64,000 nucleotides of DNA from a virus (IMGVR_UViG_3300020048_006428:119178-183177); one strand, 5' to 3'; numbered from the stretch's first letter, positions 357-59,118 are shown. The notes: generated by a model not told the origin, from the letters alone. Translations and numbers: made by a program.

Positions 357-941
357 ATGAAATACTTAAGATTATTTGAAAATTTTAATCAAACACAAAT
401 TGATTATTTATGTAAAAAATATAAAATTAAAAAATATAAAATTAATTCTGATGGATCAATTGATGTAGATGGTGATGTTTCTATAACTGGAAAAAATTTA
501 ACTAAATTACCACTTAAATTTAATAAAGTCATTGGTAATTTTACTTGTAATCATAATAAATTGACAACATTAGAAGGATGTCCAAATTATATCACTCTTG
601 ATTTTCATTGTATTAATAATAAATTAACATCATTAGAAGGATGTCCAGATTATATAGGTAGGGATTTTATTTTTCCTGGTAATAATGTAACAATTATAAA
701 AGATTATCCAAAAGAAGTTGTGGGCAGTCCTTATTACTCGGATAATCCAATAGAACCAATACTAAAATTATTTGAGGGAAATGTTAAGATATATTTAGAA
801 TATCAAGAAACATATAATTTTATTAGAACGGACAGTAAAATAGTTAAACATTTATTAGAAGAAGCTTTAAAAGATTATAATGAATATTATGGTGTTAAAA
901 AGGAATTACCAAAAGAAATAAAAGGATATACTTATATATGA
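357..941 (+). CDS. LRR-family protein, paralog 1 (3 x 21-aa repeats)
   Basis: MKYLRLFENF start, DGSIDVDGDV cap, FxCxxNxLTxLxGxP repeats, ELPKEIKGYTYI end. Confidence 0.85.
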   Translation: MKYLRLFENFNQTQIDYLCKKYKIKKYKINSDGSIDVDGDVSITGKNLTKLPLKFNKVIGNFTCNHNKLTTLEGCPNYITLDFHCINNKLTSLEGCPDYIGRDFIFPGNNVTIIKDYPKEVVGSPYYSDNPIEPILKLFEGNVKIYLEYQETYNFIRTDSKIVKHLLEEALKDYNEYYGVKKELPKEIKGYTYI

Positions 942-1585
942 AATACTTAAGATTATTTGAAAATTTTAATCAATCAGAAATTGACAAAATTTGTAGACAA
1001 TATAAAATAGAAAATTATACTATAAATCCAGATGGATCTATTGATGTAGATGGTGATGTTACACTTAATTGGAAAAGTTTAACAAAACTTCCACTTAAAT
1101 TCAATAAAGTTTCTGGTTATTTTTTGTGTACTTATAATAAATTAACAAGTTTAGATGGTTGCCCTAATTATGTAGGCAAGAGTTTTTTCTGTCAAAATAA
1201 TGAATTAACTAATTTAATTGGTGCTCCAATTTTTGTTGCTGATAATGTTGATTGTTCTAAGAATAATATAACTAATTTAATTGGTGCGCCAATTAAAGTT
1301 GGTAATACTTTTAATTGCTCATATAATGAATTAACAAGTTTAGATGGTTATCCTAAAGAAGTTGGATATATATTTAATTATTCAGGTAATCCAATAAAAC
1401 CAATAATAGATTTATTTTATTGCAATGTTAAAATTTATTTAGACTATCAAGAAACTTATAATTTTCTAAGAAAAGATTGTAAAATAGTTAAACATTTATT
1501 AATAGAAGCTTTAAAAGATTACAATGAATATTATAATCAATCAGTTGAATTACCAAAAGAAATAAAAGGATATACTTATATATGA
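938..1585 (+). CDS. LRR-family protein, paralog 2 (4 repeats)
   Basis: Same caps as paralog 1 and exactly 21 aa longer; ATGA overlap with paralog 1. Confidence 0.85.
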   Translation: MKYLRLFENFNQSEIDKICRQYKIENYTINPDGSIDVDGDVTLNWKSLTKLPLKFNKVSGYFLCTYNKLTSLDGCPNYVGKSFFCQNNELTNLIGAPIFVADNVDCSKNNITNLIGAPIKVGNTFNCSYNELTSLDGYPKEVGYIFNYSGNPIKPIIDLFYCNVKIYLDYQETYNFLRKDCKIVKHLLIEALKDYNEYYNQSVELPKEIKGYTYI

Positions 1586-2382
1586 AATACTTAAGATTAT
1601 TTGAACAATTTGAAATAGAAAAGGGTGATATTTTAAATCATCCATATCGTACACTAAATGATGTAACAGAAGATATAAAATATTTAGCACAAATATTTAG
1701 AAATCATTATATTGGTTCTTCATTTCGGGATAAAGAAGAAATTGAACTAAGACTTATCCAAAATTTAGAAAAAAGAAATTTTTCTCCATCAATAGCCAAT
1801 GCTTACCCATCATTCATAAAAATAGAAGAAATATTAAATAAAGAAATTGAATCTATTAGAAAAAAAGGTGGTTCAAGTGAATCCGAAACAAATGAATATT
1901 TAAAATTCTATAATGATTTTGCTGAACTCGTTCATATGGCACTTACGAAAAACATTAATGAAAATTATAGTATAAAGAATTATACATATAATGATTATAA
2001 ATATATTGTAAAATACAATGGTGATCATCTATACATAGAATTGCCTAATATTGGCTTTGTAGAGGGTTATAAGATGCCAATCGAACTTGATATTGCAGAA
2101 GATTTATCAAGTGATGAAATAGAAGAATTGGGTATAATTGATCCATATTTCACAATAAAACACATTGAAGTGTATGATAAAAGAAAAGGATATGGAAATG
2201 AACTTATGTCAGTTTTTTTAGACATAACAAATAAACTTGGATTAAATCAAATAATCTTAAATGCTTCTCCATTAGATAGAAATATAGATTTAGAAGGTTT
2301 AGTTGCCTTTTATGAAGATTGGGGATTTGAAGTTATAAAAAAATATAAAGATCATTCTATAATGATGCTAAATAGACTATGA
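1582..2382 (+). CDS. GNAT-family acetyltransferase with MKYLRLFE N-terminal tag
   Basis: C-terminal HIEVYDKRKGYGNELM (acetyl-CoA-binding motif A) and LVAFYEDWGFEV (motif B). Confidence 0.7.
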   Translation: MKYLRLFEQFEIEKGDILNHPYRTLNDVTEDIKYLAQIFRNHYIGSSFRDKEEIELRLIQNLEKRNFSPSIANAYPSFIKIEEILNKEIESIRKKGGSSESETNEYLKFYNDFAELVHMALTKNINENYSIKNYTYNDYKYIVKYNGDHLYIELPNIGFVEGYKMPIELDIAEDLSSDEIEELGIIDPYFTIKHIEVYDKRKGYGNELMSVFLDITNKLGLNQIILNASPLDRNIDLEGLVAFYEDWGFEVIKKYKDHSIMMLNRL

Positions 2383-4160
2383 AATATTTAATAAAATACA
2401 AAAACTATAAACTATTGGAATCGGTAATTGTTTCAAGTGATGATTTTAAGAGTATTATTACTAAATTACCAGACGAAAAAATATCAAATTATATTTATGA
2501 TATAATTAAATATGATACTGATGTTAATACAAAATATAACTATCTTAACTTATCAGATAAAAATGATGAAGTAGAATTTCTACCTGATAATCAATTCCAA
2601 AGATTCCTAAATGATGGTAGTTATGAAACAAGAAAAAGAAGTAACATAAATGTTGGTAGACTTGTATCACAAATTTTAAAGGATAATAATATAGACTTTA
2701 CTGAAACTGAATTGGTTACTTTTATAAATAATTTTAAAGCATTTCACAGTAAAATGAAAAATGTTGATATATCAATCGTTAAAGGAAATGATATATTGAA
2801 ATGGTATTTGATTGATAATTATATAGATTCAAATAATGGGACATTAAATAATTCTTGTATGGCAGATACAAAGAAAAATCATTTTATGAAAATCTATGCT
2901 GATAATCCAAATAAAATATCAATGGTTATAATTAAAGAAGATGATGGATTGGTTGCAAGAGCTTTATTATGGAAAATAGATGAATCTAATTACTATTTAG
3001 ATAGAATATATTATACAGATGGTTCACAACAAAGATTTATTCATAGTTGGGTATTAGAAAATATAGTAAATAATGGCAAAGATAAATTATTAAGTCATCT
3101 TGAATTTGATAATACACGTGGTGATATATCTATTCAATTAGACAAAATAAATTATGATTTTTATCCATATATGGATAGTTTTCCGTTTTTATATGAAAAA
3201 TTGGAAGATGGTGAACAAACAGGAAATGGATATGTTGCAAATTATAATCTATTAGATGATGGGAAGAATTATGATGATTATATGATATCCAGAATTCGAT
3301 CAAGTTCAACTGGTGAAAGAGAATGGTTAACCCATATATATTCAAAATTACTTGAAAAATGGTTTCCTAAAAATGAAGTTGTAGTAGTTATAACTAAAAA
3401 AGATAATAAACTTGATTATTTTGCAGTTCCTAAAAGTATGGCTTTTTATTCTAATTTAGAAGATTCTTATATACTCCAAACAGATGCTGTTTATTCAAAT
3501 ATATTATCTGACTATTTATCTGAATATAAATCTATATCACATCCAAAATATGGTGTTATACCAAAAGACAGTATTGTCAAAGCAAACACTAAATATATTG
3601 GGAAATATACTAACCCACTTGAAATATATAATGCACTTAAAAATGGTGAAGAGTTATATGAAATTGATGATGTTTTTGATCCGAATGGAAATGAAGTTAC
3701 TTTTGTATATGATACACCTAATAATGTGTTAGAATTATTTAAAAATGATTTACTTGTAGAAGATTATTTGGGGTATAAGAATATCGAAAAGATATGTGTT
3801 AAATTATTTAAAATAAATGGTGATTTGATGGAAACTTGTTTTGATAACAATTACATATTCTTTAAATATGGCGAAAAGTTGGGAAGATTTGAAAAAGATT
3901 TCTGGGCATACATTATGGAAGAAGATTGTATATTATTTAATAAAAATGAAATTGATTCAAATTACTACAAAACTGTTCCAATAGATTCTAGTCTAATAAT
4001 GGATAGACTTATTCATAATTTTGATATTAATAGTGTAATAGAATTTATAAATAATTCAAATATATCAGAATCTGAAAAACAAAAATTAATTGAAAGCAAA
4101 AATAAATATCATAATGAATTATTGAAAAACCAAGTTTATAAAAATAGAGTGAAAAAGTGA
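2379..4160 (+). CDS. Hypothetical 593-aa protein with N-terminal tag; possible PcfJ-like domain
   Basis: Long ORF; NSCM...YADNP...ARALLW...LDRIY core; three imperfect YSxxxxxY/W repeats. Confidence 0.55.
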   Translation: MKYLIKYKNYKLLESVIVSSDDFKSIITKLPDEKISNYIYDIIKYDTDVNTKYNYLNLSDKNDEVEFLPDNQFQRFLNDGSYETRKRSNINVGRLVSQILKDNNIDFTETELVTFINNFKAFHSKMKNVDISIVKGNDILKWYLIDNYIDSNNGTLNNSCMADTKKNHFMKIYADNPNKISMVIIKEDDGLVARALLWKIDESNYYLDRIYYTDGSQQRFIHSWVLENIVNNGKDKLLSHLEFDNTRGDISIQLDKINYDFYPYMDSFPFLYEKLEDGEQTGNGYVANYNLLDDGKNYDDYMISRIRSSSTGEREWLTHIYSKLLEKWFPKNEVVVVITKKDNKLDYFAVPKSMAFYSNLEDSYILQTDAVYSNILSDYLSEYKSISHPKYGVIPKDSIVKANTKYIGKYTNPLEIYNALKNGEELYEIDDVFDPNGNEVTFVYDTPNNVLELFKNDLLVEDYLGYKNIEKICVKLFKINGDLMETCFDNNYIFFKYGEKLGRFEKDFWAYIMEEDCILFNKNEIDSNYYKTVPIDSSLIMDRLIHNFDINSVIEFINNSNISESEKQKLIESKNKYHNELLKNQVYKNRVKK

Positions 4161-4170
4161 AAATAAAATA

Positions 4171-4202
4171 AAAACACATTATAATTTATAATGTGTTTTT
4201 TT
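4171..4202. terminator. Intrinsic terminator hairpin
   Basis: AAAACACATTATA-ATT-TATAATGTGTTTTT after the stop at 4160. Confidence 0.75.
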
Positions 4203-4254
4203 AATTAAACTAAAATAGATATATCATATATAATTAAAAAATAATTAATATAAA

Positions 4255-4980
4255 ATGACCATATCTTTAGAAAAGGTATTTTTTACATTTATTTTAAAAA
4301 ATAAAAGGCACTTCGGTATAGTAGAACCAATTTTTTTCAAAAATGCAGAAATACAATTAGTATATAATATACTTAGAAAATATATACTTAAAAATTCAGA
4401 AGCAGAAGTTCCACAACCAAGACAAATTCTTGAAATGGTGTCGCTTGAAGATAAAGAATCTTTAATTACAAAAGATATTCTAAAAGCAATGCTAACAGTT
4501 AATCTTAGTGAGTATGATGAAACTAATTTTATAATACCAAAATTTAATGCTTGGATATTATCTAATAGATTAAAAGCAGGCACTATTGATATAATAGATG
4601 AAACCAGAAATCTTGACACTAAAACAGACTTTGATTCAATATTAGAATCTGCTAATAAGATTAAAAATATTGTAGATCAAATGGCAAATATAAACTTTGC
4701 TGATGATGACGATCTTGGTGCAGATTTTGATGACCCAGAACAACACGCACAAGATTCTTCTAAATTTAAAATAAAATCAGGATTTGCTACTATTGATCAT
4801 ATGCTTGGTGGTGGTTGGGATATATCAACTTTAAACATTCTGATGGCTGAAACGTCCAACGGAAAATGTTTTTCAGGATTGATAAGGGTTTCAGAAGATT
4901 CTGAAAAAACAGAAACAATAAAAATAGAAGATTTTTTCAATAGAATTAAAAATATGTCTAAGGCGGTGAAAAAGAAATAA
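4255..4980 (+). CDS. dnaB: Replicative helicase (gp41/DnaB-like), N-terminal half, fused to the 37-aa N-part of a split intein
   Basis: SGFATIDHMLGGGW...LNILMAETSNGK is a Walker A that stops at Lys and is followed by intein Cys1 (TGT at 4867-4869), CFSGLIRV...KKK*. Confidence 0.85.
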   Translation: MTISLEKVFFTFILKNKRHFGIVEPIFFKNAEIQLVYNILRKYILKNSEAEVPQPRQILEMVSLEDKESLITKDILKAMLTVNLSEYDETNFIIPKFNAWILSNRLKAGTIDIIDETRNLDTKTDFDSILESANKIKNIVDQMANINFADDDDLGADFDDPEQHAQDSSKFKIKSGFATIDHMLGGGWDISTLNILMAETSNGKCFSGLIRVSEDSEKTETIKIEDFFNRIKNMSKAVKKK

Positions 4981-5002
4981 TATATAAAAATAAACAGCCA
5001 AT

Positions 5003-6448: not shown

Positions 6449-6449
6449 A

Positions 6450-19392: not shown

Positions 19393-19701
19393 ATGAAGAT
19401 TAAAAAGTTTTTTGAACAAGATGAAAACTTATCACTTTCAGAAGATAAAATAAAAGAAATGATTGATAAAATTTCTGAAATAAGTTCACTTATTGATAAT
19501 AAGAAAGTAGATATAACATCTATGTTAAATAGCTTATCAAATTTGAAATCAAAATCAAAAAAATCAAATACACAGATTGATGATTCATATTTATATTTAG
19601 AATCCATATCTAATAAAATAGATGATATAATATCAACATTTGATGTGATAAACAACAATTTAAATGACTACTATGAATCAGGAGAACGATACCTATATTA
19701 A
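19393..19701 (+). CDS. Hypothetical coiled-coil protein with N-terminal tag (MKIKKFFE)
   Basis: ORF with promoter motif upstream. Confidence 0.65.
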   Translation: MKIKKFFEQDENLSLSEDKIKEMIDKISEISSLIDNKKVDITSMLNSLSNLKSKSKKSNTQIDDSYLYLESISNKIDDIISTFDVINNNLNDYYESGERYLY

Positions 19702-20318: not shown

Positions 20319-20798
20319 TTATTTATTATATTTCAATTTATATAATGTCTTGTATATCAATACTAAAATATCATCAATTATATTAAAATAATGTGTATCT
20401 TCTGCATTAAAACACTTTCTTTCTGATTTTATAAAGTCACCCAATTCAGTAAAATATTCAATTGTATCTTTTGTGTTACTATCAGATGTGTCTATAACAT
20501 CATAATTTTTAATCAATATATATTGACCCTGATATATTTCAACTAAATCATCAATTGATTCTAATATACCTTCATAATATCCTTGCATAGCTTCGTGTTT
20601 ACCTAATGAACCCATATCACCAGTAACTTTTAAATGATACATATGCGCCATTTCTCTACTTTCAAACAACTTAGAAACAAATTTAGCAACATCAGTCTTA
20701 TCCACATTTAAAGGTGGTGCAGTTGATTCATTTATTCTGAATAGTTTATTTTCGTTTATATTATTCCATTTTGGATTTATATTTGTGAATTTTTTCAT
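20319..20798 (-). CDS. Ferritin/Dps-like four-helix-bundle protein
   Basis: AHMYHLKV...KHEAMQGYYEGILESIDDLVEIYQGQY matches the Dps-like H..H / H / D...E ligand spacing. Confidence 0.7.
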   Translation of the reverse strand: MKKFTNINPKWNNINENKLFRINESTAPPLNVDKTDVAKFVSKLFESREMAHMYHLKVTGDMGSLGKHEAMQGYYEGILESIDDLVEIYQGQYILIKNYDVIDTSDSNTKDTIEYFTELGDFIKSERKCFNAEDTHYFNIIDDILVLIYKTLYKLKYNK

Positions 20799-21016
20799 AA
20801 TTTATCTATATTATTTTTTTTTATTTGTATGCTAATATCTTGTATTTCAGAAATATCAATAATTGTATACTCATCAGCCATAGAAGATAATTCACTATCT
20901 GCTATATATCCAGCTTCACCTGTATTTTCAGCTTTTATTGTAAATTCAACTTCTGCCTTTATTTTATAAGTTTTTTCTATATTAATATTTTCAATTAATT
21001 TACTAAATCTTTTCAT
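20795..21016 (-). CDS. Small hypothetical protein with N-terminal tag (MKRFSKLIE)
   Basis: ORF; TTTAATATATA at 21060-21050. Confidence 0.6.
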   Translation of the reverse strand: MKRFSKLIENINIEKTYKIKAEVEFTIKAENTGEAGYIADSELSSMADEYTIIDISEIQDISIQIKKNNIDKL

Positions 21017-21299: not shown

Positions 21300-21554
21300 A
21301 TGAAACATATTAAGAAATATAAAATGTTTTTAGAATCAACTGCTGCGGCTGAACCAACAACCGAACCAGCACCAACTAAAACACCGGTAAAAGTACCAAC
21401 AAAACCAGAAAAACCAATAAAACCAGAAGAACCTATTGGTATACCATCTATCAGTCCTGAAAGAAAAGGTGTTACTGAAAAAGATGTCGTTAATAGATTT
21501 TTAGAAGAAATGGATGAACAAGGTGAATCTATCAAAAAATATTTAGATAAATAA
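21300..21554 (+). CDS. Pro/Thr/Lys-rich small protein with N-terminal tag (MKHIKKYKMFLES)
   Basis: ORF; TTTAATATATA at 21269. Confidence 0.7.
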   Translation: MKHIKKYKMFLESTAAAEPTTEPAPTKTPVKVPTKPEKPIKPEEPIGIPSISPERKGVTEKDVVNRFLEEMDEQGESIKKYLDK

Positions 21555-21555
21555 T

Positions 21556-23034
21556 ATGAAAATAAAAGATTTTGAAAAGTTTCTTTTAGAAGAAATAACA
21601 ATAAAAGGAAATCCCGCTATTCCAGGCGAAGGTGCAGATAAAGATGAAGAAAAATATTTATCAAATGTTGAACGTAGAACAAAAGAAAGATTGGGTATAA
21701 CTGGACAAGGATCAGGTTCTATTGCTTCACAATTAATGAGTTTATTAGAAGAATCTAAGACATATACAAAAGGTAAGGAAAAACAATTAGAATCATTAGC
21801 AAATGATATTATGATGGGTAACTATGGTGATATCATCAAAAGATATGAAATAACATTAGACATCAAAATGATTAAATCAGGAAAAGATGTTAAAGAATTT
21901 ATGGATGATATCGACGATGAACATGATGAAGAAGAAAAAGAATATGTTGATTGGATTCAAGTAAAAGATGAAGATGAAAGAAATGAAGTATATAAAAGAA
22001 AAATAGCCAATTTAATTATACAAGGTGAATCAAAAAACACTAAACATATTTTACATTCTGATGAATGTAAAAGTGGATTAGAAGTTATTTTTGGTGGGGA
22101 CGCTGATAAAATATTTAAAATTTGGGATGAAATGTCTAAATTAGCAGATAAGTTAGATTGGTTACTTCCAACTGATAGTAGGGCAAATATGATGAAAGAA
22201 AACCCAGAAGGTTTTGCTGGTGCATCGGGTGTTGGATGGAAACCAAAAGAAGAATCAGAAGAATTACAAGAATACGAAGAAGAATCAGAAGAAGAATATA
22301 CTGCTTGGACAGGTGAAGAAGATGAAGAAGAAATGTATAATGATTATACAGAAGAAGAATACATAGAACCAACAATTTCATATACACCAATATTAAAAGC
22401 AGTTGGTATTGATTTTCCTATGTTATTACATGAATCTGTAAAAGGATTATTTGAAATATTATCATTAGGTGGTATACCAAAAGATGCTACTGTTGCAAAT
22501 ATAGCTTTATCTAATACAGGGATGGAAGATGAACCAGAAGATTGGAAATATGGCCCAGAAGTGGCAAGAGATTTCAGAAGATTTTTAAATGTAAATAAAA
22601 ATATTGATAAATATCCAAATATAAGAGAAGAATTATATAAGATATTAATTGATAAAAATACAATGTCAACCAAAGAATTCTTAAAGTTATTCAAAGGTAT
22701 TTTATCAAATACTGATGAAGCAAGAAGAAAAATTGATGTTTTGATAAACAAAGCCATTGAAAATATAGAAGTATATAACAACTATCTTGCAGAATTGGAT
22801 CAATATGAAAAAGATATGAAACAATATGAAATAGATATGGCTAACTTTGGAAAAAGTGGTAGTGTTGTAGATGATGAAGAAATTGTTGATATCAAAGAAG
22901 TTGATTACTCTACAATGAATAAAAGAGAACTTCAAGCTGAAATTGATGCTGCATTAGATAATGGAAATTATACGAAAGTTAAGATGTTATCAAAATACAT
23001 AAAAGAAAGTAGAAATAATAAAAAATATAATTAA
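21556..23034 (+). CDS. Acidic hypothetical protein with N-terminal tag and UVR-like C-terminal helix pair
   Basis: 492-aa ORF; Glu-rich tract; ends ELQAEIDAALDNGNYTKVKMLSKY. Confidence 0.65.
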   Translation: MKIKDFEKFLLEEITIKGNPAIPGEGADKDEEKYLSNVERRTKERLGITGQGSGSIASQLMSLLEESKTYTKGKEKQLESLANDIMMGNYGDIIKRYEITLDIKMIKSGKDVKEFMDDIDDEHDEEEKEYVDWIQVKDEDERNEVYKRKIANLIIQGESKNTKHILHSDECKSGLEVIFGGDADKIFKIWDEMSKLADKLDWLLPTDSRANMMKENPEGFAGASGVGWKPKEESEELQEYEEESEEEYTAWTGEEDEEEMYNDYTEEEYIEPTISYTPILKAVGIDFPMLLHESVKGLFEILSLGGIPKDATVANIALSNTGMEDEPEDWKYGPEVARDFRRFLNVNKNIDKYPNIREELYKILIDKNTMSTKEFLKLFKGILSNTDEARRKIDVLINKAIENIEVYNNYLAELDQYEKDMKQYEIDMANFGKSGSVVDDEEIVDIKEVDYSTMNKRELQAEIDAALDNGNYTKVKMLSKYIKESRNNKKYN

Positions 23035-23039: not shown

Positions 23040-24854
23040 ATGATAAAGAAATATTTAGATTTTAGACAAACAGTTAATGAAAAATATTCAAATGAATTAA
23101 TTAATGAAAATATAGCCCAAGCCAAAACATTCTTGAAAAATAGAGCTTTGAAGATAAAAAAAGATAGAATGGGCGATTCAGAAGAACCAGTTGGATTATC
23201 ACCACAAGAAGTAAAAGCTGCTGAACAAGATAGAGATTTTCTTGAAATTGTTAAACTTGCAAAAGATATGTCTGGTTATACTTATGTATTTACTAAATTT
23301 TTCTATGAAGATTTGGAATATTTAGATAAATCCGATAGAATTGATGAACTAAGTAGACTTTTAAATATTTTAAAGGAATATAGACAATCAATCGGTGAAC
23401 TACCTATGCCAGTTGATAGGTATTGCAGTAAAGCAGCAATCGAAGAAGAAGTAAAATCAGCAACAGATGAAGGTAGACCGATAAGAAGTTCTTATGAACG
23501 CTTATGTGATGATTTAGAAAAATTAAAGACAAGTAAAATAACAAAAAAATGGATAAATGAATTACCATCAGAACAAAAATCATGGTTTGCAAGATTAACT
23601 GAAGACCAAAAGAAATTGGTTGACGCAATAGCTCTTGGATTTGACTTAATGGGTTCAGAAGATGGTGTAAAAGATCCAAAAGCAAATAAAATATTAACTC
23701 GTAACTTCTTTGAAAAATTAAAAGACTATAAAACATTTGGTGACTTAATTATATCTGCACAATATGCTATAAAATCTGCTAATAATGCATCGTTTAAAAA
23801 ATTTTTAGTTTCACTTGATAAAGTGAATCAAAAATATGGTGAATTAAATGGAACAGAAATAAAGTATAACGAAAATGGTATATTAATTATTGAAGTTAGG
23901 TCATATCAAGCAAATAAAGAATTAAACTCACATACCAAACACTGCATTATACATTTTGGACATTGGACTCATTATTTAGGTGATTTTAATAAACAATATT
24001 ATATTTATAATTTTAATTTGGATCAAACTGATAATAAATCAGTAATTGGTATTACAATAGGTGAAAATAATAAAGTAACTGCTTGTCATCTTAAAAATGA
24101 TGACAACTTTATAAGTGGTATTGTTAATCATATGAATTCACTTAAGCTTGATTTACCAAAAGGTGTCAAATCACCAATGGAAATAATGCCAGGTATGACA
24201 AAACCAGAAGTTGAAGCCAAAAAGAAAAAAATTGCAGCCAGTAAAGAAATTATTAAAGATAACTTATCATTAGATAAGATAAAAGAACTTTTGGAGTTAG
24301 GTGCAGATCCAAATGCAGCCAAAGGAAAAGTTTTGGAAAATTCTGTTAGAGAAAGTGATTTAGAAAAAACTAAATATTTATTAGAAAAAGGTGCAATGCC
24401 AAGTTTAAATAATCCTATTAAATTTGCTAAAACTATGGATATGATAAAATTATTAGTTTCATACCATTGTGAATTGACAAGTGAAGTGTTTAAAAATATA
24501 ATGGGTGATATTGAAGGTGTTGAATATGTATTAAAAGCAGGTATGGATCCTAATTTTGATAGAGGATTACCTGTTAGACTTGCTGTTGCACAAGATAATA
24601 AAAAAGTATTAGATTTATTAATACATTATAAAGCAGATCTTTCAAATAGAAATTATTTAATTTTAAAAGTAGCTGCACAACATGCACAATCAGAGGTATT
24701 TGAATATCTATATAATGGTGTTGAAAACATACCAAGCTTTAAGAAGATTGAAGAACACATTAAAACTGAATGTTTAAATTGGGCAAAAAGTGCTGAATTA
24801 CCACAAGATAAAATAGATACTATGGTTGAAACCATAACAAGATTGATGAGATAA
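23040..24854 (+). CDS. Ankyrin-repeat protein with a central PcfJ-like domain
   Basis: LLELGADPN, YLLEKGAMP, LKAGMDPN...LAVAQDNKKVLDLLIHYKAD ankyrin-like units; central HTKHCI...HWTHY...YYIYNF. Confidence 0.7.
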   Translation: MIKKYLDFRQTVNEKYSNELINENIAQAKTFLKNRALKIKKDRMGDSEEPVGLSPQEVKAAEQDRDFLEIVKLAKDMSGYTYVFTKFFYEDLEYLDKSDRIDELSRLLNILKEYRQSIGELPMPVDRYCSKAAIEEEVKSATDEGRPIRSSYERLCDDLEKLKTSKITKKWINELPSEQKSWFARLTEDQKKLVDAIALGFDLMGSEDGVKDPKANKILTRNFFEKLKDYKTFGDLIISAQYAIKSANNASFKKFLVSLDKVNQKYGELNGTEIKYNENGILIIEVRSYQANKELNSHTKHCIIHFGHWTHYLGDFNKQYYIYNFNLDQTDNKSVIGITIGENNKVTACHLKNDDNFISGIVNHMNSLKLDLPKGVKSPMEIMPGMTKPEVEAKKKKIAASKEIIKDNLSLDKIKELLELGADPNAAKGKVLENSVRESDLEKTKYLLEKGAMPSLNNPIKFAKTMDMIKLLVSYHCELTSEVFKNIMGDIEGVEYVLKAGMDPNFDRGLPVRLAVAQDNKKVLDLLIHYKADLSNRNYLILKVAAQHAQSEVFEYLYNGVENIPSFKKIEEHIKTECLNWAKSAELPQDKIDTMVETITRLMR

Positions 24855-24855: not shown

Positions 24856-24893
24856 AAAAAAAGACAACCTAAAAAATTAGGTTGTCTTTTTTT
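24856..24893. terminator. Bidirectional intrinsic terminator (identical core to 53339-53377)
   Basis: A7-GACAACCT-AAAAAATT-AGGTTGTC-T7 between convergent genes. Confidence 0.85.
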
Positions 24894-25854
24894 ATTTTAC
24901 TTTTATATTTATTTTTAACCAAAACTCACTTGTTGTTATACTATATTGTACTTTTTCTGACCATTTAAATTTCAAAATATAATTTCTAAAATTAGTTTTT
25001 ACATTCTCAACTTCTCCAATATCCATTACACCATTATCCCATTTACCAATTCCATAATACGCAAAAGTTATTATATTATCTGTTATTATTGGTAATGATT
25101 TTTTTTCTGTATAACCGGGATTAAAACTTAACATTTCTTTTTTAATTTTAGAAAATAAGTTTAATTTATCATAATCAATATCGTTAAATAACATCCTTAG
25201 ACTAATTGATGATGGTGAAGTTAATTGTGCTAAATAATTAATAATACTTTTTGTTATTTTAAATTGTCCATATTTAATTGCTAAATCATCTATTTGCAAA
25301 CCATATTCAAAAAACATATCATTTCTTATACCATAATATAATCTATATTTATTACCATCTTTTGATGAATTAATTATATCATCAAAGTATTTATATCTAA
25401 TTGAAACAGATTTTAGTGTATTATAATCAACAAAATCTGTATTAAAATACATTAAAAATATATCAGGTGTTACTTCCCAATTTGGTTTTATATTTTTGAA
25501 TCCTAATGCAGTTATTATTTTCAAAAAGCATTTGAATAGGTTTTTACCACCGATTTCATTTGATTCCAACAAATCAATATCTGTATGTGTTGTTATTTCA
25601 GCTTCACCTGGTTCTTCACCTTTTTTATCTTTTAGTATTAAATCTATTATTAGATTTTGTGTAAATTCATCCAATAAATTTATAGCATTTGCTAATCTAA
25701 TATTTGAATGGATATCTTTTGTATATTGTGAAATTATATTTAAAGCATATTCATTATCTTCTGCTAATTTTTCAATATATTCACCAATAGTATCAAAATA
25801 ATTAGATGATAATGATTCTACAATAAATCTGTTATATTTTTTCAATCTTTTCAT
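24892..25854 (-). CDS. Hypothetical protein with N-terminal tag (MKRLKKYNRFIVES)
   Basis: 320-aa ORF; TTTAATATATA at 25869-25859. Confidence 0.7.
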   Translation of the reverse strand: MKRLKKYNRFIVESLSSNYFDTIGEYIEKLAEDNEYALNIISQYTKDIHSNIRLANAINLLDEFTQNLIIDLILKDKKGEEPGEAEITTHTDIDLLESNEIGGKNLFKCFLKIITALGFKNIKPNWEVTPDIFLMYFNTDFVDYNTLKSVSIRYKYFDDIINSSKDGNKYRLYYGIRNDMFFEYGLQIDDLAIKYGQFKITKSIINYLAQLTSPSSISLRMLFNDIDYDKLNLFSKIKKEMLSFNPGYTEKKSLPIITDNIITFAYYGIGKWDNGVMDIGEVENVKTNFRNYILKFKWSEKVQYSITTSEFWLKINIKVK

Positions 25855-25953: not shown

Positions 25954-26850
25954 TTATAATACACTTAAAACTTCTTCATAAATTTCTTTTGCAGTTTTAT
26001 TTCTTGTGTTTATTATTTTCTTATAATCAAATTCCTTTTCTATTTCACTTTTTAATTTAACCCAATAAGTGACATCATCTTCTAAATTCATTAATTCTAA
26101 AAACTTATCAATATTAAATTTTCCTTCAAATAAAGATTTATGTAATTCATCATCATCCAATAAATCTATTATTTCTTGTTTTGACCAACTTTTATCATCA
26201 ATTGTATCTTTTCTATTTTCACTTAATTCATATCTTTCAACAAAATCTTTCAAAAAGACATTAGCCCCACGCATATCATATTTTGATCTACTTATCAAAT
26301 TTCTTTTTAAATCATCTAATGGTGCATATAATAAAACTATATCACACTCAGGTAATTCAAAATATTTGCTATATAAAGCACAACCAGGTTCTATATCATC
26401 TATAACAACATCCACACATTTTGGATTTCTACCTACCCTATTACCATCATCATCCAAATAGCTATTTTCCCATATTTTACATTCCTTTATTTCTTTCATC
26501 ATATAATATTGAACACTATCAAACATATTCTTTGGATATCTTATTGCACTTGAATCAGAAAATGGGTCTTCATTATGCACATTATTATATAAAGCATGTT
26601 CATCATTTGTAGTGTGCCATATTTTTCCATAAATATCAGTTATAGTAGATCCATCATTATATTTTTCAGTTGCAAAAGAATCAGGAAATAATACATTATA
26701 AAAAGAATCAACAGATATAACACACCAACCATTTTTTACCAATGGCTTAGAAATATAGCTTTTTCCACTTGATGATGTACCATCAAGTATCAATATACTA
26801 TTTGGAATGTTTTTTTTATCAAAATTATCAAAAAGCTTTGTGTATTTCAT
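25954..26850 (-). CDS. P-loop small-molecule kinase (chloramphenicol-phosphotransferase-like) with N-terminal tag
   Basis: ILILDGTSSSGKS Walker A followed by VISVDSF; VVIDD; R(N)xxxR lid-like segment. Confidence 0.65.
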   Translation of the reverse strand: MKYTKLFDNFDKKNIPNSILILDGTSSSGKSYISKPLVKNGWCVISVDSFYNVLFPDSFATEKYNDGSTITDIYGKIWHTTNDEHALYNNVHNEDPFSDSSAIRYPKNMFDSVQYYMMKEIKECKIWENSYLDDDGNRVGRNPKCVDVVIDDIEPGCALYSKYFELPECDIVLLYAPLDDLKRNLISRSKYDMRGANVFLKDFVERYELSENRKDTIDDKSWSKQEIIDLLDDDELHKSLFEGKFNIDKFLELMNLEDDVTYWVKLKSEIEKEFDYKKIINTRNKTAKEIYEEVLSVL

Positions 26851-30098: not shown

Positions 30099-30488
30099 TT
30101 CATCTTTAATGTTAATAACAATATCTTCAATAGCTTTCATTGTTCCTTTTATTATATAATCATATAAGCTAAAACAATTTATTTCAGAAGGAACTTCATC
30201 ATAGAAATTTATTTTTGATAATAATGAATCAATATCATTTCTATAACTTAAATAGAATTCATATACATCTGAATCATTAATCAATCCTTCTATTTTACTT
30301 TTATCAGAATCTCTTATAAAAGCTTCAATAAAATCATTAAATACGTCTATATCATCGCTATTTAATGATTTTATTATTTTATCAATAATTTCATCTTTTA
30401 AATCTTTGTATTCTGGTTTTAATTTAGATGATATATCATCTTTTAAATCTTCATTTACAAAGCTTAAATATTTTTTTACATTTTTCAT
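30090..30488 (-). CDS. Hypothetical acidic protein with N-terminal tag (MKNVKKYLSFVNE)
   Basis: ATGA-coupled to the upstream LRR gene. Confidence 0.65.
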   Translation of the reverse strand: MKNVKKYLSFVNEDLKDDISSKLKPEYKDLKDEIIDKIIKSLNSDDIDVFNDFIEAFIRDSDKSKIEGLINDSDVYEFYLSYRNDIDSLLSKINFYDEVPSEINCFSLYDYIIKGTMKAIEDIVINIKDESK

Positions 30489-31072
30489 ATATAAGTATAT
30501 CCTTTTATTTCTTCTGGCAATTCTACCTGTTTATTATAATATTCATTATAATCTTTTAATGCTTCTTCCAATAAGTGTTTAACTATTTTAGAATCCTTTC
30601 TAAGAAAATTATATGTTTCCTGATAATCTAAATATATCTTAACATCTTCATTAAATAAATCTATTATTGGTTCTATTGGATTAGAAAAATATAAAAAATT
30701 TCTACCAACAACTTTTTTAGGACCACCATCTAAACTGGTTAATTTATTTCTAGAACAATAAAAATCCCCACCAACTTCTTTAGGACAACCTATTAAACTG
30801 GTTAATTCATTATAAGAACAAATAAAATTTCCACCAACCTCTTTAGGACAACCATCTAAACTAGTCAATTTATTCCAAGAACAATCAAAACTTCCATAAA
30901 CTTTATTAAATTTTAATGGTAATTCAGTTAAACTTCTATCGGATAACCAAACATTCCCATCAACATCAATAGACACATCAGGATTTATTGTATAGTTTCT
31001 AATATTATAGTGTTCACAAATATAATCAATTTCTGATTGATTAAAGTTTTCAAATAATTTCAAGTATTTCAT
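30485..31072 (-). CDS. LRR-family protein, paralog 3 (3 repeats)
   Basis: MKYLKLFENF...FDCSWNKLTSLDGCPKEVGGN...ELPEEIKGYTYI. Confidence 0.85.
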   Translation of the reverse strand: MKYLKLFENFNQSEIDYICEHYNIRNYTINPDVSIDVDGNVWLSDRSLTELPLKFNKVYGSFDCSWNKLTSLDGCPKEVGGNFICSYNELTSLIGCPKEVGGDFYCSRNKLTSLDGGPKKVVGRNFLYFSNPIEPIIDLFNEDVKIYLDYQETYNFLRKDSKIVKHLLEEALKDYNEYYNKQVELPEEIKGYTYI

Positions 31073-40565: not shown

Positions 40566-40916
40566 ATGAAATATTTAAAAAAATTTAATGAAAGTTCAAA
40601 CTATGAATTATCATCACAACATGATAAAGAAATTTTTTATAAAAAATATAATAGTTTAGATTTTAACAAAAATGAAATAAATGAAATAAAGGCTATTATG
40701 GCTAATTTCAATTTCTTTGAACATAATTTAACTAAATGCTTTTTATTTACAAGAGAAATAAAAAATTCAAGTGAAAAATCTGAAATTTATATTACAAAAT
40801 ATGAAGATTATTGGTTTTATCTAAGCTATTATAAAAACTATAATTCAAATGCAATTGTATATAAATGTGATCAATTAAATGGATTAATTGAATGCTTAAA
40901 ATATATACTACAATAA
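40566..40916 (+). CDS. Hypothetical protein with N-terminal tag (MKYLKKFNES)
   Basis: ORF; TTTAATATATA at 40551. Confidence 0.7.
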   Translation: MKYLKKFNESSNYELSSQHDKEIFYKKYNSLDFNKNEINEIKAIMANFNFFEHNLTKCFLFTREIKNSSEKSEIYITKYEDYWFYLSYYKNYNSNAIVYKCDQLNGLIECLKYILQ

Positions 40917-52875: not shown

Positions 52876-53337
52876 ATGAAAGCTGGTCTTATTTCACACG
52901 AAAACGCTTTGAGATTTATTTATGGCGGAAAATGTTTTGTTACCTTTCTTAATACACAAAGTGAAAATAGATTTACTTACAAAGTCTTTAAATGCAAAGA
53001 TGATGATAGTTTATATTTTGTTAGCCTATTAACCGGACCTGAACAATATACCTTTATTGGTACATTAACTGATGTAAATTTTTATCATTCTAAAAAATCA
53101 ACAATCGGTTTTGATGCACAATCAGTTAAAGTATTTAAATATGTCTTAAATAAATTAAAAGAAAATACTTTACAAGATTTTATTGAAATTTATCATGATG
53201 GTCGCTGTGGTAAATGCGGAAGACAATTAACTACACCAAATTCAGTAACTATTGGAATTGGACCGGAATGTCTTAAAAATATAAACTTGAGTATAGAAGA
53301 AAAACGTGAAATAAAACTAAGACAACTTGGTATATAA
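52876..53337 (+). CDS. DUF6011-like Zn-binding protein
   Basis: HDGRCGKCGRQLTTPNSVTIGIGPEC; ends REIKLRQLGI. Confidence 0.7.
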   Translation: MKAGLISHENALRFIYGGKCFVTFLNTQSENRFTYKVFKCKDDDSLYFVSLLTGPEQYTFIGTLTDVNFYHSKKSTIGFDAQSVKVFKYVLNKLKENTLQDFIEIYHDGRCGKCGRQLTTPNSVTIGIGPECLKNINLSIEEKREIKLRQLGI

Positions 53338-53338
53338 T

Positions 53339-53377
53339 AAAAAAGACAACCTAATTTTTTAGGTTGTCTTTTTTTTT
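53339..53377. terminator. Bidirectional terminator (identical core to 24856-24893, opposite orientation)
   Basis: A6-GACAACCT-AATTTTTT-AGGTTGTC-T9. Confidence 0.85.
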
Positions 53378-53378
53378 A

Positions 53379-54602: not shown

Positions 54603-54627
54603 TTTTCTTTCGCTTTTTTTTATATAG

Positions 54628-54734
54628 TATATATAAAAAATTCCACACCCCCCTTTCGATATTTTTAGACTTATTTAATTATTTATTTTATTTTCAAATA
54701 AATACTGAAGGGGGGTATAAGTTTTTTATATATA
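54628..54734. promoter_or_regulatory. Mirror-image divergent promoter pair containing G6 boxes
   Basis: AAGGGGGGT-N5/6-TTTTTTATATATA on both strands (54655-54628 toward recA; 54708-54734 toward the endonuclease). Confidence 0.55.
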
Positions 54735-54738
54735 ATTT

Positions 54739-56367
54739 ATGAACAGTTACGAATTTTTAAAAAAAGCACAAGAAGTACATGGACATAAATATTTATACCC
54801 ATTGTTACCAAATAAGATAACACACAAAGATAAAATTGATGTATTATATAATGATGTTTTATATACACAATCAGTTTGTAAACATCTTATGGGTAGATGC
54901 CCAGAAAAAAATATACCAATTAAAACACATGAACAATTCATTAATGAATGTAAGGAAATATGGGGGGATAAATATGACTATTCTTTAGTTGAATATATTG
55001 GTTCACTAAAACCAATTAAGATAATATATAATGGTGTAATTTTTGAACAAATAGCATCATCACATATAAATGGACTTAAACCCGAACTTAATATGAATAG
55101 GGATTGGTTCATAAAACGTTCTAAAGATAAATGGGGTGATAAATATGATTATTCTTTAGTTGAATACACAAATTGTAAAGCTAAAGTTAAAATAATTTAT
55201 AAAAAAACAGGTGAAATTTATGAGCAAACACCAGAAGGACATTTAAAAAACGCACCAGAAAATATACACCTTTCTATTAGAAGAACAACGGAAAAATTCA
55301 TAGAAGAATCAATTAAAATACATAAAGATAAATATGATTATTCATTAGTAAATTATATTACAAATAGTACTAAAGTAAATATAATATGTAAAAAACACGG
55401 TATATTTTCACAAGTCCCACAATCACATTTAATAGGAAATGGGTGTAAAAAATGTGGCTTTGAAAACAGTTCAAGGGAACATAAACCAAAATATACAACA
55501 GCAGAATTCATAAATGAAGCTAAAATTATATGGGGTGATAAATATGATTATTCTTTAGTTGACTATAAAAATTGTAAAACTAAAATAAAAATAATATTTG
55601 ATGGTATAATATATGAACAAACCCCAATATCACATTTTAAATATCCACCAGAAAGATTTCTAAATCAAGAAATCTTTCTAATAAAAGCTAAAAGGAAATG
55701 GGGTGATAAATATGATTATTCTTTGACTAATTTTATAGATTCACGAAAAACTATAAAAATAAAGTTTAACAACGAAATATATGAACAACTACCATGTAAT
55801 CATTTAAATTATGCACCTGAACTAAGAAACACCAAATCACAAGATGAATTTATAAATGAGTCAAAGAAAATACATAATTATAAATATAATTATGATGATG
55901 TAATTTATTCAAATATATCAACACAAGTTACTATAAGTTGCCCAAAACATGGAAAATTTAAACAGAAACCTTGTATTCATTTAAAGGGAAGTGGTTGTAA
56001 AAAATGTTCAGAATCTTTTGGTGAAAAAGCAATATCAAATTTTTTAGATATTAAAAACATTTCATATATTAGAGAACATAAATTTGATGATTGTAGATAC
56101 ATTCAATTACTTAAATTTGATTTCTATATACCATCCTTTAGAACTTGCATTGAATTTGATGGTATTCAACATTTTACACCTATTGAATATTTCGGTGGTA
56201 TAAAAGCATACGAATCGCTTGTAATTAGAGATAAAATAAAAGAACAATATTGCGAAGACAATTATATCAATCTAATAAGAATAAAATATGATAAGATTGA
56301 CAATATTGAAGAAATATTAAAAGAAAATTTAAAAGTCCTTTTAGAATTAAAAAACACCAATTATTAA
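54739..56367 (+). mobile_element. Free-standing homing-endonuclease-like gene (about 7 WGDKYDYSxVxY repeats + PD-(D/E)XK-like nuclease)
   Basis: Repeated F.......WGDKYDYSLVEY modules; C-terminal LKFDFYIP...CIEFDGIQHF...YCEDNYINLIRIKY, paralogous to 7581-8861. Confidence 0.75.
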
Positions 56368-56379
56368 TTGGTGTTTTTT
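56349..56379. terminator. Bidirectional terminator
   Basis: AAAAAACACCAATT-ATT-AATTGGTGTTTTTT between the convergent endonuclease and LRR genes. Confidence 0.8.
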
Positions 56380-56382
56380 AAA

Positions 56383-57090
56383 TTATATATAAGTATATCC
56401 TTCTATTTCTTCTGGTAATTCTACCTGTTTATTATAATATTCGTTATAATCTTTTAATGCTTCTTCTAAAAGGTATTTAACTATTTTACAATCTTTTCTT
56501 AAAAAATTAAATGTTTCTTGATAGTCTAAAAAAAGTTTATATTCATAATCCCCATGGAAAAACAATCCAGCTAAATTATCCAATGGTGTTTCATAACAAG
56601 ATATATCAGAATCAGTTGGAAGTCCTTCTAATGTTGATATCATATTATCATCAAATCTTACCATTTCAGCATTTGGACAGCCAACCAAAGATGTTAATTT
56701 GTTACCAGAACAAATAAATCGTTTTACGGTAGTTGGTAAATATTCCAATTTTTCCAAAAAATTACCAGAACAATTATACACACCATTAACTACTTTAGGA
56801 CCACCTTTTAAAGTAGTTAATCCATAGTTATTCATACAATAAAAACCTTCACCTACATAATTAGGAGATCCTTCTAAAGTTTTTAATTGATTATAGTTGC
56901 AATAAAAACTACCTGTTACTTTATTAAATTTTAATGGTAGTTCTTTTAATTTTTTACTATATAAAGAAACATTACCATCAACATCAATAGACCCATCAGG
57001 ATTTATTGTATAGTTTTGTATGTTATACACTTTACAAATTTCATCAATTTCTGACGTATCAAAGTTTTCAAATAATTTTAAGTATTTCAT
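56383..57090 (-). CDS. LRR-family protein, paralog 4 (about 5 more divergent repeats)
   Basis: Shared caps MKYLKLFENF / ELPEEIEGYTYI. Confidence 0.85.
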   Translation of the reverse strand: MKYLKLFENFDTSEIDEICKVYNIQNYTINPDGSIDVDGNVSLYSKKLKELPLKFNKVTGSFYCNYNQLKTLEGSPNYVGEGFYCMNNYGLTTLKGGPKVVNGVYNCSGNFLEKLEYLPTTVKRFICSGNKLTSLVGCPNAEMVRFDDNMISTLEGLPTDSDISCYETPLDNLAGLFFHGDYEYKLFLDYQETFNFLRKDCKIVKYLLEEALKDYNEYYNKQVELPEEIEGYTYI

Positions 57091-57641
57091 ATTTCAAAAT
57101 AAATATCTAATATTTCTAATGTTTTAGAATCATCTTTATTATATTGGATTTTATTATCACCCAATAATATTTTACCACCACTAATTAAATCAATTAGTGG
57201 TTCTTCTCTATTAAATAATTCCATTTCATCATTATTTATAATTATTTGAGTATCATAAATAACTTTACTTTCACCAATTCGAATTGATGCAGCATGTGAA
57301 GTTCCACCAATATTATTGGTCCTTGGTATTCTATTATTATTTTTGGAAGGTATTTTAATATTTAATTCTTTACCAATTGCTTCTGGATTATTAATAAAAT
57401 ATTTAGTAGCTTTTTCCTTAGCTTCATCAAAAATACCATCAAAATCATTTGATTCTTCATCAGGCATATTCATTTTGGCTATTTTAAATACTAAATCATA
57501 ATTACCATCATCTACTAAAGAATCAACATATTCTTTAGCACCTTTATTTATAATTGGATTGTATTTTGGGACAAAGTCAATTGACGATGAATCTCTATTT
57601 GAATCATCAATGAATGATTCGTATTTTTTTAAGTATTTCAT
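57087..57641 (-). CDS. Non-LRR hypothetical protein with N-terminal tag (MKYLKKYES), inside the LRR array
   Basis: ATGA-coupled on both sides. Confidence 0.7.
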   Translation of the reverse strand: MKYLKKYESFIDDSNRDSSSIDFVPKYNPIINKGAKEYVDSLVDDGNYDLVFKIAKMNMPDEESNDFDGIFDEAKEKATKYFINNPEAIGKELNIKIPSKNNNRIPRTNNIGGTSHAASIRIGESKVIYDTQIIINNDEMELFNREEPLIDLISGGKILLGDNKIQYNKDDSKTLEILDIYFEI

Positions 57642-58477
57642 ATATAAGTATATCCTTCTATTTTTTCAGGTAATTCTACCTGATTATTATAATATTCATT
57701 GTAATCTCTTATAGCTTCTTCTAATAAGTGTTTAACAATTTTAAAATCCTTTCTTATAAAATTATATGTTTCTTGATATTCTAAACAAATTTTAGCAACA
57801 TAACCAAATATACTTATAATAGAATCTATTGGATTATCATCATAATAGCTATCACCTTGAATTCTATTAGGGGCACCTTCTAATGATGTTATTTTATTAG
57901 ACTTACAATTTAACATCCCATTAATTTCATTTGGACAACCTATTAAATTTACCAATTGATTATTATAACAATAAAAATCACCTTCAACATAATTAGGACA
58001 ACCTATTAAACTTGTTAATTGATTATGTGAACAATCAAAAAACTCACCACCAACTTCTCTTGGACAACCTATCAAACTTGTTAATTTATTATCACGACAA
58101 TCAAAAGAATCAGCAACTTCTTTAGGACAACCATCTAAATTGGTTAATTGATTCCTTGCGCAATCAAAATAACCACCAACATAATTAGGACATCCTTCTA
58201 GATTAGTCAATTTATTCCAAGAACAAACAAAATCACGACCAACATAATTAGGACAACCTATTAAACTTACTAATTTGTTACTAGAACAAATAAAATTTCC
58301 AGAAACCCTATTAAATTTAAGTGGTAGTTTTGTTAAATTTATATATTTAAATTTCACATCACCATCCACATCAATAGATCCATCTGGATTAATTGTATAA
58401 TTTGTTATACCATATTCATTACAAATTTCATCAATTTCTGATGAATCAAAGTTTTCAAATAGTTTTATGTATTTCAT
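57638..58477 (-). CDS. LRR-family protein, paralog 5 (7 repeats)
   Basis: 279 aa = 194 + 4 x 21 + 1; shared caps. Confidence 0.88.
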   Translation of the reverse strand: MKYIKLFENFDSSEIDEICNEYGITNYTINPDGSIDVDGDVKFKYINLTKLPLKFNRVSGNFICSSNKLVSLIGCPNYVGRDFVCSWNKLTNLEGCPNYVGGYFDCARNQLTNLDGCPKEVADSFDCRDNKLTSLIGCPREVGGEFFDCSHNQLTSLIGCPNYVEGDFYCYNNQLVNLIGCPNEINGMLNCKSNKITSLEGAPNRIQGDSYYDDNPIDSIISIFGYVAKICLEYQETYNFIRKDFKIVKHLLEEAIRDYNEYYNNQVELPEKIEGYTYI

Positions 58478-59118
58478 ATATAAGTATATCCTTCTATTTT
58501 TTCAGGTAATTCTACCTGCTTTTTATAATATTCATTAAAATCTTTTAATGCTTCTTCTAATAAGTGTCTAACTATTTTACAATCCTTTCTTAAAAAATTA
58601 TATGTTTCTTGATATTCTAAATAATATTTAACTTCAAAATCAAATAAATCTGTAATTTTTGATATTGGATTACCACAATCATTAAAAAACCCATCAACTT
58701 TAGGACAACCTTCTAATGTAGTTAATTTATTATCAGCACAATGAAAACCACAAATAACTTCTTTTGGGCAACCATCTAAACTGGTTAATTTATTATCAGA
58801 ACAATCAAAATAACCACCAACTTCTTTTGGACCACCAATTAAATTGGTTAATTCATTATCAGAACAATTAAAATTATCACCTACATAATTAGGCGAACCT
58901 TCTAAAGTAGTTAATTTATTATCACCACAATCAAAACTCCCATAAACTTTATTAAATTTAAGTGGTAATTTAGTTAATTCATCACCCAATAAATCAACAT
59001 CTTCATCCACATCAATTGAACCATCTGAATTTATAGTATAATAATATATATCATATTCTTTACAAATAGCATCAATTTCCGATGAATTAAAGTTTTCAAA
59101 TAATTTTAAGTATTTCAT
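58474..59118 (-). CDS. LRR-family protein, paralog 6 (4 repeats)
   Basis: Shared caps; TTTAATATATA at 59157-59147. Confidence 0.88.
   Translation of the reverse strand: MKYLKLFENFNSSEIDAICKEYDIYYYTINSDGSIDVDEDVDLLGDELTKLPLKFNKVYGSFDCGDNKLTTLEGSPNYVGDNFNCSDNELTNLIGGPKEVGGYFDCSDNKLTSLDGCPKEVICGFHCADNKLTTLEGCPKVDGFFNDCGNPISKITDLFDFEVKYYLEYQETYNFLRKDCKIVRHLLEEALKDFNEYYKKQVELPEKIEGYTYI

Follow-up and report, generated by a model that had tools for sequence, protein, structure and literature searches.

A shared N-terminal peptide resembling the T4 capsid-targeting sequence on many proteins of an uncultured megaphage lineage

Many proteins encoded in a 64,000-nucleotide stretch of viral DNA (IMGVR_UViG_3300020048_006428:119178-183177, hereafter the window) begin with the same short peptide, a tag that is real and lineage-wide. 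The window spans bases 119178-183177 of a 276.4-kb IMG/VR phage record, a genome fragment of about 25% GC with a CheckV completeness of 47%, over the whole of which 349 open reading frames (ORFs) were called (91% coding). The tag is restricted to N-termini and to phages and is modular; the genome that carries it has T4-type head genes, the tags share a sequence pattern with head proteins, and tagged genes share an upstream motif with structural genes. Our favored explanation, held with modest confidence, is that the shared N-terminus is a capsid-targeting propeptide of the T4 type that has been expanded in one megaphage lineage, that of the 635- to 735-kb "Mahaphage" relatives.

Two forms of the tag can be distinguished. 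Class I reads MK(Y/H)(L/I)(K/R)x(F/Y)E(N/S)(F/Y), while the longer class II reads M(x)KK(Y/F)xx(F/Y)(I/L/V)xE(S/N), as in MKHIKKYKMFLES, MKRLKKYNRFIVES, and MKNVKKYLSFVNED and, outside the window, MKIKKYLDFIAE. With gapped variants included, the tagged set comprises 76 proteins, about 20% of the proteome, with 20 of them inside the window (Table 1). These 20 N-termini had been listed in a preliminary description of the window, and all translate exactly as quoted there; those at 20798, 21016, and 19393 are weak cases. To score the tag, a 10-column weight matrix was derived from it and N-termini were compared with internal positions. At a threshold of at least 12 bits, the matrix recovers 37 of 349 N-termini, where its 4 matches among 76,185 internal positions would lead one to expect 0.02. 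The enrichment is more than 1,000-fold, and the motif of the preliminary description occurs at N-termini of the genome far beyond chance. A simple regular expression for the tag gives 35 N-terminal matches against 0.08 expected, and a single match after 1,323 internal Met residues. As a control genome we used Tenacibaculum phage PTm1, which has 30% GC and the same T4-type head genes. None of its N-termini scores above 5.2 bits, and although it has the MK bias, F7, E8, and F10 are not enriched. The letters of the tag found no match in the literature searched, and we looked for leader peptides in a comparative paper on jumbo phages (PMC7824862) and found no discussion of them.

By capsid protein, the nearest relatives are all uncultured huge phages, namely LR745206 (635 kb, 64% identity), LR756502, LR756504, and LR756501/3 (735 kb, 49%), and the Lak phages and PTm1 are distant at 27 to 28% identity. 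In LR745206, 54 of 913 N-termini score at least 10 bits, a number that rises to 86 with class II added. LR756501 has 18 ATG-anchored class II tags, MLKYQEFINE among them, versus 0 for a control pattern; a strict class I DNA pattern was not found in LR756501, PTm1, or Lak-A2. In IMG/VR, 56 stretches on about 45 contigs encode the exact 10-residue class I tag; of the 768 ORFs there, 126 are tagged. Among 28 tag-bearing records checked for the capsid gene, 14 matched in all: 11 have a full-length gene 53 to 72% identical to that of the source genome, a 348-kb record has one about 39% identical, and two matched through short, weak alignments. Where a tag-bearing contig includes a capsid gene, the gene is of this clade's type. 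The exact tag did not turn up in any of about 185,000 genomes of bacteria and archaea, and its absence from the bacterial genomes searched means that the phage did not copy it from a host.

In T4, a handful of proteins, IPI to IPIII and Alt, are known to bear a capsid-targeting sequence (CTS). The T4 CTS, the prohead core, and processing by gp21 are summarized in PMC5694885. What our tags have in common with these leaders is an MK start, aromatics, and an (L/I)-x-Glu end within 10 to 20 residues, borne by otherwise unrelated proteins in a genome that also has homologues of gp20, gp21, and gp23. T4 leaders translated from the genome (MKTYQEFIAE and MKTFKEF...ITE) were compared with the tags MKIKKYLDFIAE and MKHIKKYKMFLES and with MLKYQEFINE of the 735-kb relative. 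A hydrophobic-(x)-Glu ending is reached by residue 16 in 73 of the 76 tags. At P3 of this putative cleavage site the tags have Leu in 33 cases, Phe in 15, Ile in 9, and Val in 5 (62 in all), and P1' is mostly Asn or Ser.

The genome also encodes a gp21-like prohead protease, a point the preliminary description had raised, with catalytic His and Ser and beside gp20- and gp23-like genes. The portal and capsid proteins, both encoded outside the window, match Portal_T4 (E 2e-59) and Gp23 (E 4e-27), respectively. The protease is part of a 718-residue protease-scaffold protein (genome positions 88884-91040, outside the window), the first ~170 residues of which match Peptidase_S77/S80 (PF03420, 27.1 to 29.3 bits with a cut-off of 27; PF20034, 28.4 bits). 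Its GEFDHP and VSSRAAG motifs align with GELNHP and VSSRGLG of T4 gp21, where we take the catalytic His and Ser of the gp21 type to reside. The relation to T4 gp21 is based on Pfam and on this direct alignment; phmmer against PDB sequences gave no match for the protease domain. The scaffold part consists of 12 tandem 14-residue repeats, NIAYSEY(L/I)AExxDK, after which come an acidic stretch and a C-terminal domain that is conserved. The protease domain is directly followed by S-I-N-E-S; an alignment of 24 homologues shows it almost without variation, and at least 107 of the 120 homologues listed have S(I/V)NES. All 120 listed homologues carry 5 to 14 scaffold repeats, and more than 1,400 homologues of the protease-scaffold are found in metagenomes, on contigs of up to 770 kb. 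Near its N-terminus the capsid protein has SELAE and SINEN, the latter kept in LR745206 and PTm1.

A common pattern connects these elements. In nine head proteins translated from the T4 genome, [YF]xx[FY][LIV]xE occurs only as YQEFIAE, in the CTS of IPII and IPIII, and as FGSFLTE in gp23, which ends at the known gp23 maturation cut. In our genome the pattern falls within the first 18 residues of a protein in 11 cases, in the scaffold repeats in 12, and at other places in 19 (~84,000 residues). Judged by sequence, one kind of site, that of T4 gp21, recurs in the tags, at the junction of protease and scaffold, in the scaffold repeats, and at the N-terminus of the capsid protein. Scaffold repeats and tags occur together in the source genome, in LR745206, and in LR756501, whose protease-scaffold has 13 Y-x-E-Y-I-A-E repeats, while PTm1 has neither. 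In Lak-A2, read under code 11, no protease-scaffold ORF was found upstream of the capsid gene. We also note a 62-residue protein (genome 13623-13811, +) with three scaffold-like repeats, SY(N/A)DYIAE, which could be a small component of the prohead core comparable to T4 gp67 and gp68.

Tagged and structural genes share a motif upstream of their start codons. TTTAATATATA is present in 72 copies in the genome versus 11 expected, mostly 12 to 37 nucleotides ahead of start codons, and in 80 copies versus 14 expected in LR745206; examples in the window lie upstream of 357, 15577, 21300, 29573 (-), 40972, and 59118 (-). It precedes the portal gene and several large structural genes, and near variants precede the capsid, protease, and sheath genes. 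The list of genes preceded by it contains no ribonucleotide reductase, methylase, DnaJ-like, or thymidylate synthase gene, gene identities here being taken partly from N-terminal motifs. Whereas 36 of 76 tagged genes have the motif upstream, only 51 of 273 untagged genes do (odds ratio ~3.9), and the figures for LR745206 are 39 of 86 and 106 of 827 (p 6e-12). This evidence concerns 9- and 11-mers only, as the 8-mer version AATATATA is not over-represented genome-wide (226 versus 215 expected); an operon-chain statistic derived from that 8-mer was accordingly left out of account. By analogy with TATAAATA of T4, TTTAATATATA may be a late promoter.

With the first 15 residues removed, all-against-all BLAST places the 44 core-tagged proteins in 27 clusters. 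The view that the carriers are unrelated, advanced from the window, is only partly correct. In the window itself the 20 proteins form about 15 sequence families, because six are paralogues of one leucine-rich repeat (LRR) family and the protein at 2379 belongs to a seven-member family. The LRR family is the largest cluster, with 16 members genome-wide and six in the window (357, 938, 31072, 57090, 58477, and 59118), and in alignment shows a fixed N-cap, a variable number of 21- to 22-residue repeats, and a fixed C-terminal domain. Its match to Pfam LRR_4 is weak. For the paralogue at 57638..58477, an AlphaFold2 model has a predicted local distance difference test score (pLDDT) of 92.3, and the best Foldseek matches are the LRR domains of IpaH, SspH, and YopM (E 4e-5, TM ~0.54); the modeled fold confirms the large tagged family as a short bacterial-type LRR solenoid. 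Two untagged members of the family begin exactly at the end of the tag, and the tag is thus a separable module.

Pfam and PHROG scans of 50 tagged or neighboring proteins of the genome left nearly all without a family. Recognizable carriers in the genome are the LRR family, the ankyrin protein, and a Dps/ferritin-like protein (DUF5856), besides weak matches to a P-loop kinase and to a GNAT-like fold. Among the labels given in the preliminary description, ankyrin (Ank_2, E 6.6e-7), Dps-like (DUF5856, PHROG 858), and, by fold, LRR are borne out, while the kinase is a weak match (P-loop CPT, E 1.8e-4, just under the cut-off) and GNAT no more than a weak fold match in the 2379 protein. The suggestion that the tag avoids enzymes fails in the 635-kb relative LR745206. 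Its class II carriers include a GH108 lysozyme, a DHH protein, a T4-type RNA ligase 1, a SMODS-associated NUDIX protein, and a fusion of a DEDD exonuclease with a 2H-phosphoesterase (Acb1-like, below cut-off), enzymes that would suit an injected counter-defense kit.

The peptide is maintained in divergent proteins. Homologues of the 2379 protein at 25 to 40% identity retain a K-Y-x-x-(F/Y)-L...LLES start, and across 18 orthologue pairs with LR745206 identity is 28% at residues 2 to 12 versus 12% at residues 13 to 23 (Wilcoxon p 0.005), a drop that is not seen in 111 untagged orthologue pairs. One LR745206 protein has a complete Sa_NUDIX domain (profile positions 1 to 183) that begins at residue 16, directly after MILDFLSFINES. 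AlphaFold2 gives a pLDDT below 50 at residues 1 to 12, the tag, of the 2379..4160 protein, and only at residues 1 to 8 of the LRR paralogue at 57638..58477. In these two confident models the tag is the sole long low-confidence N-terminal stretch, and it is predicted to be a disordered appendage outside the fold.

If the tag is a propeptide of the T4 type, tagged proteins would be made from a promoter class common to structural genes, and the short amphipathic tag, with its basic start, aromatics about three or four residues apart, and then Glu, would co-assemble with the prohead core. The core in turn would be built from the protease-scaffold fusion, whose 14-residue repeats bear Y-x-x-(Y/F)-(L/I)-x-E like the tags. 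A gp21-type protease would then remove the tag by cutting after hydrophobic-x-Glu, as in MKYLKLFE/NF or ...FLE/S, and the mature proteins, retained in the head, would pass into the cell together with the DNA. Such a cargo would comprise LRR and ankyrin binders, the Dps-like protein, many orphans, and, in the relative, nucleotide- and RNA-directed enzymes. The likeness to T4 put forward in the preliminary description gains from the gp21-like protease, the hydrophobic-x-Glu ends, the position of the tag outside the fold, and the motif in common with structural genes, and each sequence-level prediction of a T4-like tag that we examined agrees with it.

Several points nevertheless weigh against this explanation. 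Packaging, cleavage, core binding, and ejection are steps that we infer, and TTTAATATATA is assumed to be a late promoter. The scale, about 20% of proteins, is far above any studied case. Class I (MKYLKLFENF) matches the T4 pattern less closely than class II does, and some class I tags have Thr or Lys at P3. The same type of protease occurs in PTm1, which lacks tags, and can therefore do without them. When a weight matrix is derived from nothing but the scaffold repeats, enrichment at N-termini is weak (3 of 40 and 7 of 40 top matches versus ~2 expected, with 5 of 40 in PTm1), and the proposed imitation of the scaffold repeat by the tag is therefore carried by the looser seven-residue pattern and not by this matrix. 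Two tagged genes (genome 42436-45108 and 45105-45722) lie just upstream of the tail sheath gene, where tags would be odd if the products are tail proteins. Finally, the tags have a codon bias, with TAC at codon 3 in 18 of 26 cases versus 8.8% of Tyr codons in gene bodies, which points to DNA-level sharing or some other constraint; counting a single gene per cluster still leaves it in 8 of 15 cases, and in LR745206 it is less pronounced.

Differences from the known systems are also apparent. Compared with the handful in T4, there are 44 to 76 carriers in this 47%-complete fragment and 54 to 86 in the 635-kb relative, and these include large paralogue families and enzymes. The form MKYLKLFENF, dominant here, is a second form not seen in T4. 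The core and scaffold proteins gp22, gp67, and gp68 of T4 undergo repeated cleavage at (L/I)-x-Glu and are removed from the head; our genome likewise has a scaffold with about 12 regularly spaced Y-(L/I)-A-E sites, together with the 62-residue three-repeat protein. Protease and scaffold form one polypeptide, as annotated in PTm1, and the 14-residue repeat is not found in T4 gp22. In phiKZ, 201phi2-1, and SPN3US, many head-internal proteins are cut after x-x-Glu by a gp21-related protease, and phiKZ-like paralogue families have conserved N-termini (PMC5694885). In those phages, however, most propeptides exceed 100 residues, the cleavage motif reads (A/S/G)-x-Glu, and processing affects about 8 to 19 proteins; apart from the protease fold, the phiKZ lineage has no relation to the source lineage.

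A bolder version of the T4-type explanation, which we offer tentatively and rate as somewhat short of an even chance, is that throughout a 350- to 735-kb lineage the CTS has become a general address by which around a hundred proteins per genome are loaded into the head for co-injection. The tag would imitate the repeat of the protease-scaffold, and the cargo would take in diversified binders of the LRR and ankyrin types, acidic as well as DNA-binding proteins, and enzymes resembling counter-defense functions (the Acb1-like 2H phosphoesterase with exonuclease, the SMODS-associated NUDIX, DHH, and RNA ligase). If true, the tag would provide a sequence-only readout of the injected proteome in unculturable phages, at dozens to more than 100 proteins per genome, and part of the extra coding capacity of the largest phages would be a premade first-strike arsenal and not a set of genes for use after entry. 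Orphan tagged proteins and the variable LRR family would then be candidates for new anti-defense or host-takeover functions, and the tags would form a natural set of short sequences for loading foreign proteins into T4-type capsids.

An alternative is that the tag is a signal unconnected with the capsid, such as an amphipathic helix for a membrane or compartment, a handle for a chaperone of phage or host, or an N-terminal degron that times protein removal. A short, amphipathic peptide that is found only at N-termini, stands outside the fold, and is conserved at the protein level fits any N-terminal signal, and some 20% of proteins, enzymes included, would find room more readily in the cytoplasm than inside a capsid. 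The N-terminal motifs recognized by ClpX include a class made up of polar, hydrophobic, hydrophobic, basic, and hydrophobic residues, which K-Y-L-K-L resembles, but no ClpP gene was found in the 276-kb record. The tags lack a hydrophobic core of the secretion-signal type, which argues against a signal of that kind. Moreover, any non-capsid signal would leave unexplained the pattern that the tags have in common with the T4 CTS, with the scaffold repeats, and with their junction to the protease, as well as the co-occurrence of tags and scaffold repeats across genomes. We regard this alternative as unlikely.

Less probable again is that the tag is mainly a DNA-level module, either a 5' segment spread by duplication or recombination or the leader of an integron-like cassette, with a peptide that has no packaging role. 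A handle for gene swapping was proposed earlier for the internal-protein loci of T-even phages. In our genome the 30 nucleotides of tag DNA are nearly identical in many copies, with the TAC preference at codon 3 noted above and AAC at codon 9 in 13 of 20 cases versus 12.7%, and there are two truncated tagged micro-ORFs. The boundaries between genes are also conserved. LRR genes end in ...GYTYI, with a stop codon that overlaps the next tagged ATG (TATATATGA; in the window at 938, 1582, 30488 (-), 57641 (-), and 58477 (-)), and the conserved junction extends over about 45 nucleotides. The downstream gene is often not an LRR gene, and the overlap probably results in translational coupling. Conserved DNA at gene boundaries, small genes in tandem, and truncated copies are all reminiscent of integron-type cassettes. 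In contrast to such cassettes, however, tagged starts show no excess of hairpins and the peptide is conserved as protein in relatives. Predicted folding energies at -50 to +40 of tagged and untagged starts are the same (-7.6 versus -7.6 kcal/mol, p 0.95), and there is thus no general hairpin at tagged starts. The same peptide is spelled with varied synonymous codons in LR745206 and in the IMG/VR contigs, insertion variants keep the aromatic-hydrophobic-Glu pattern and not the DNA, the upstream motif stands at varying distances from the ATG with varying sequence in between, and many tagged genes lack a promoter of their own. Synonymous variation in relatives, gapped variants, and the lack of a hairpin excess together imply that the peptide itself is selected, although a role of tag DNA in recombination could coexist with a role of the peptide. 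A last alternative, that an AT-rich composition, together with selection for Lys-rich and unstructured 5' ends that ease the start of translation, produced the tag incidentally, is scarcely credible and in effect refuted by the control genome and the positional statistics. In its favor, MK starts are common in AT-rich genomes such as this one, with its 25% GC, and K at position 2 is 3.6-fold enriched genome-wide. Against it, AT-rich PTm1 has the MK bias with no tag, enrichment over internal positions is more than 1,000-fold, and the conserved aromatic and Glu positions go beyond codon or structure effects.

Table 1. Tag-bearing genes of the window (window coordinates)
Coordinates	Strand	Length (residues)	Protein	N-terminal tag	Remarks
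357..941	+	194	LRR-family paralogue	class I, MKYLRLFENF	
938..1585	+	215	LRR-family paralogue	class I, MKYLRLFENF	start overlaps upstream stop
1582..2382	+	266	orphan	class I, MKYLRLFEQF	no Pfam/PHROG match
2379..4160	+	593	member of 7-paralogue family	long tag, MKYLIKYKNYKLLES	weak GNAT-like fold region
19393..19701	+	102	orphan	variant, MKIKKFFEQ	LR745206 orthologue begins MKIKRLYEN
20319..20798	-	159	Dps/ferritin-like DUF5856	weak long leader, MKKFTNINPKWNNINEN...FRINES	domain from ~residue 34-66
20795..21016	-	73	orphan	weak, MKRFSKLIEN	
21300..21554	+	84	Pro/Thr/Glu-rich protein	class II, MKHIKKYKMFLES	TTTAATATATA upstream
21556..23034	+	492	orphan	class II, MKIKDFEKFLLEE	
23040..24854	+	604	ankyrin-repeat protein	class II-like leader, MIKKYLDFRQTVNE	
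24892..25854	-	320	orphan	class II, MKRLKKYNRFIVES	LR745206 orthologue begins MIIKKYIKFIKEN
25954..26850	-	298	weak CPT-type kinase match	class I-like, MKYTKLFDNF	tag ~15 residues before P-loop
30090..30488	-	132	orphan	class II, MKNVKKYLSFVNED	probably translationally coupled to upstream LRR gene
30485..31072	-	195	LRR-family paralogue	class I, MKYLKLFENF	
40566..40916	+	116	orphan	class I variant, MKYLKKFNES	one paralogue elsewhere in genome
52023..52766	-	247	orphan	variant, MIIKKFRLFEN	
56383..57090	-	235	LRR-family paralogue	class I, MKYLKLFENF	
57087..57641	-	184	orphan	class I variant, MKYLKKYESF	probably coupled to upstream LRR gene
57638..58477	-	279	LRR-family paralogue	class I, MKYIKLFENF	
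58474..59118	-	214	LRR-family paralogue	class I, MKYLKLFENF	

Further tagged ORFs of the genome deserve mention. A tagged protein of 100 residues (genome 68773-69075) has a very acidic C-terminal half, with runs of Asp and Glu interspersed with Tyr and Phe, and is reminiscent of DNA-mimic anti-restriction proteins. Two ORFs of 47 and 31 residues, at genome positions 250055 (-) and 251908 (+), begin with a perfect MKYLKLFENF, and the shorter runs on into a RISKIRKILEK module; they may be truncated or remnant tagged genes. In addition, a family of eight paralogues with DUF7487 and a weak restriction-endonuclease-like domain is dispersed through and around the head module (genome 79667-94907) and elsewhere, with copies between the portal, protease, and capsid genes, and looks like selfish genes of the homing-endonuclease type.

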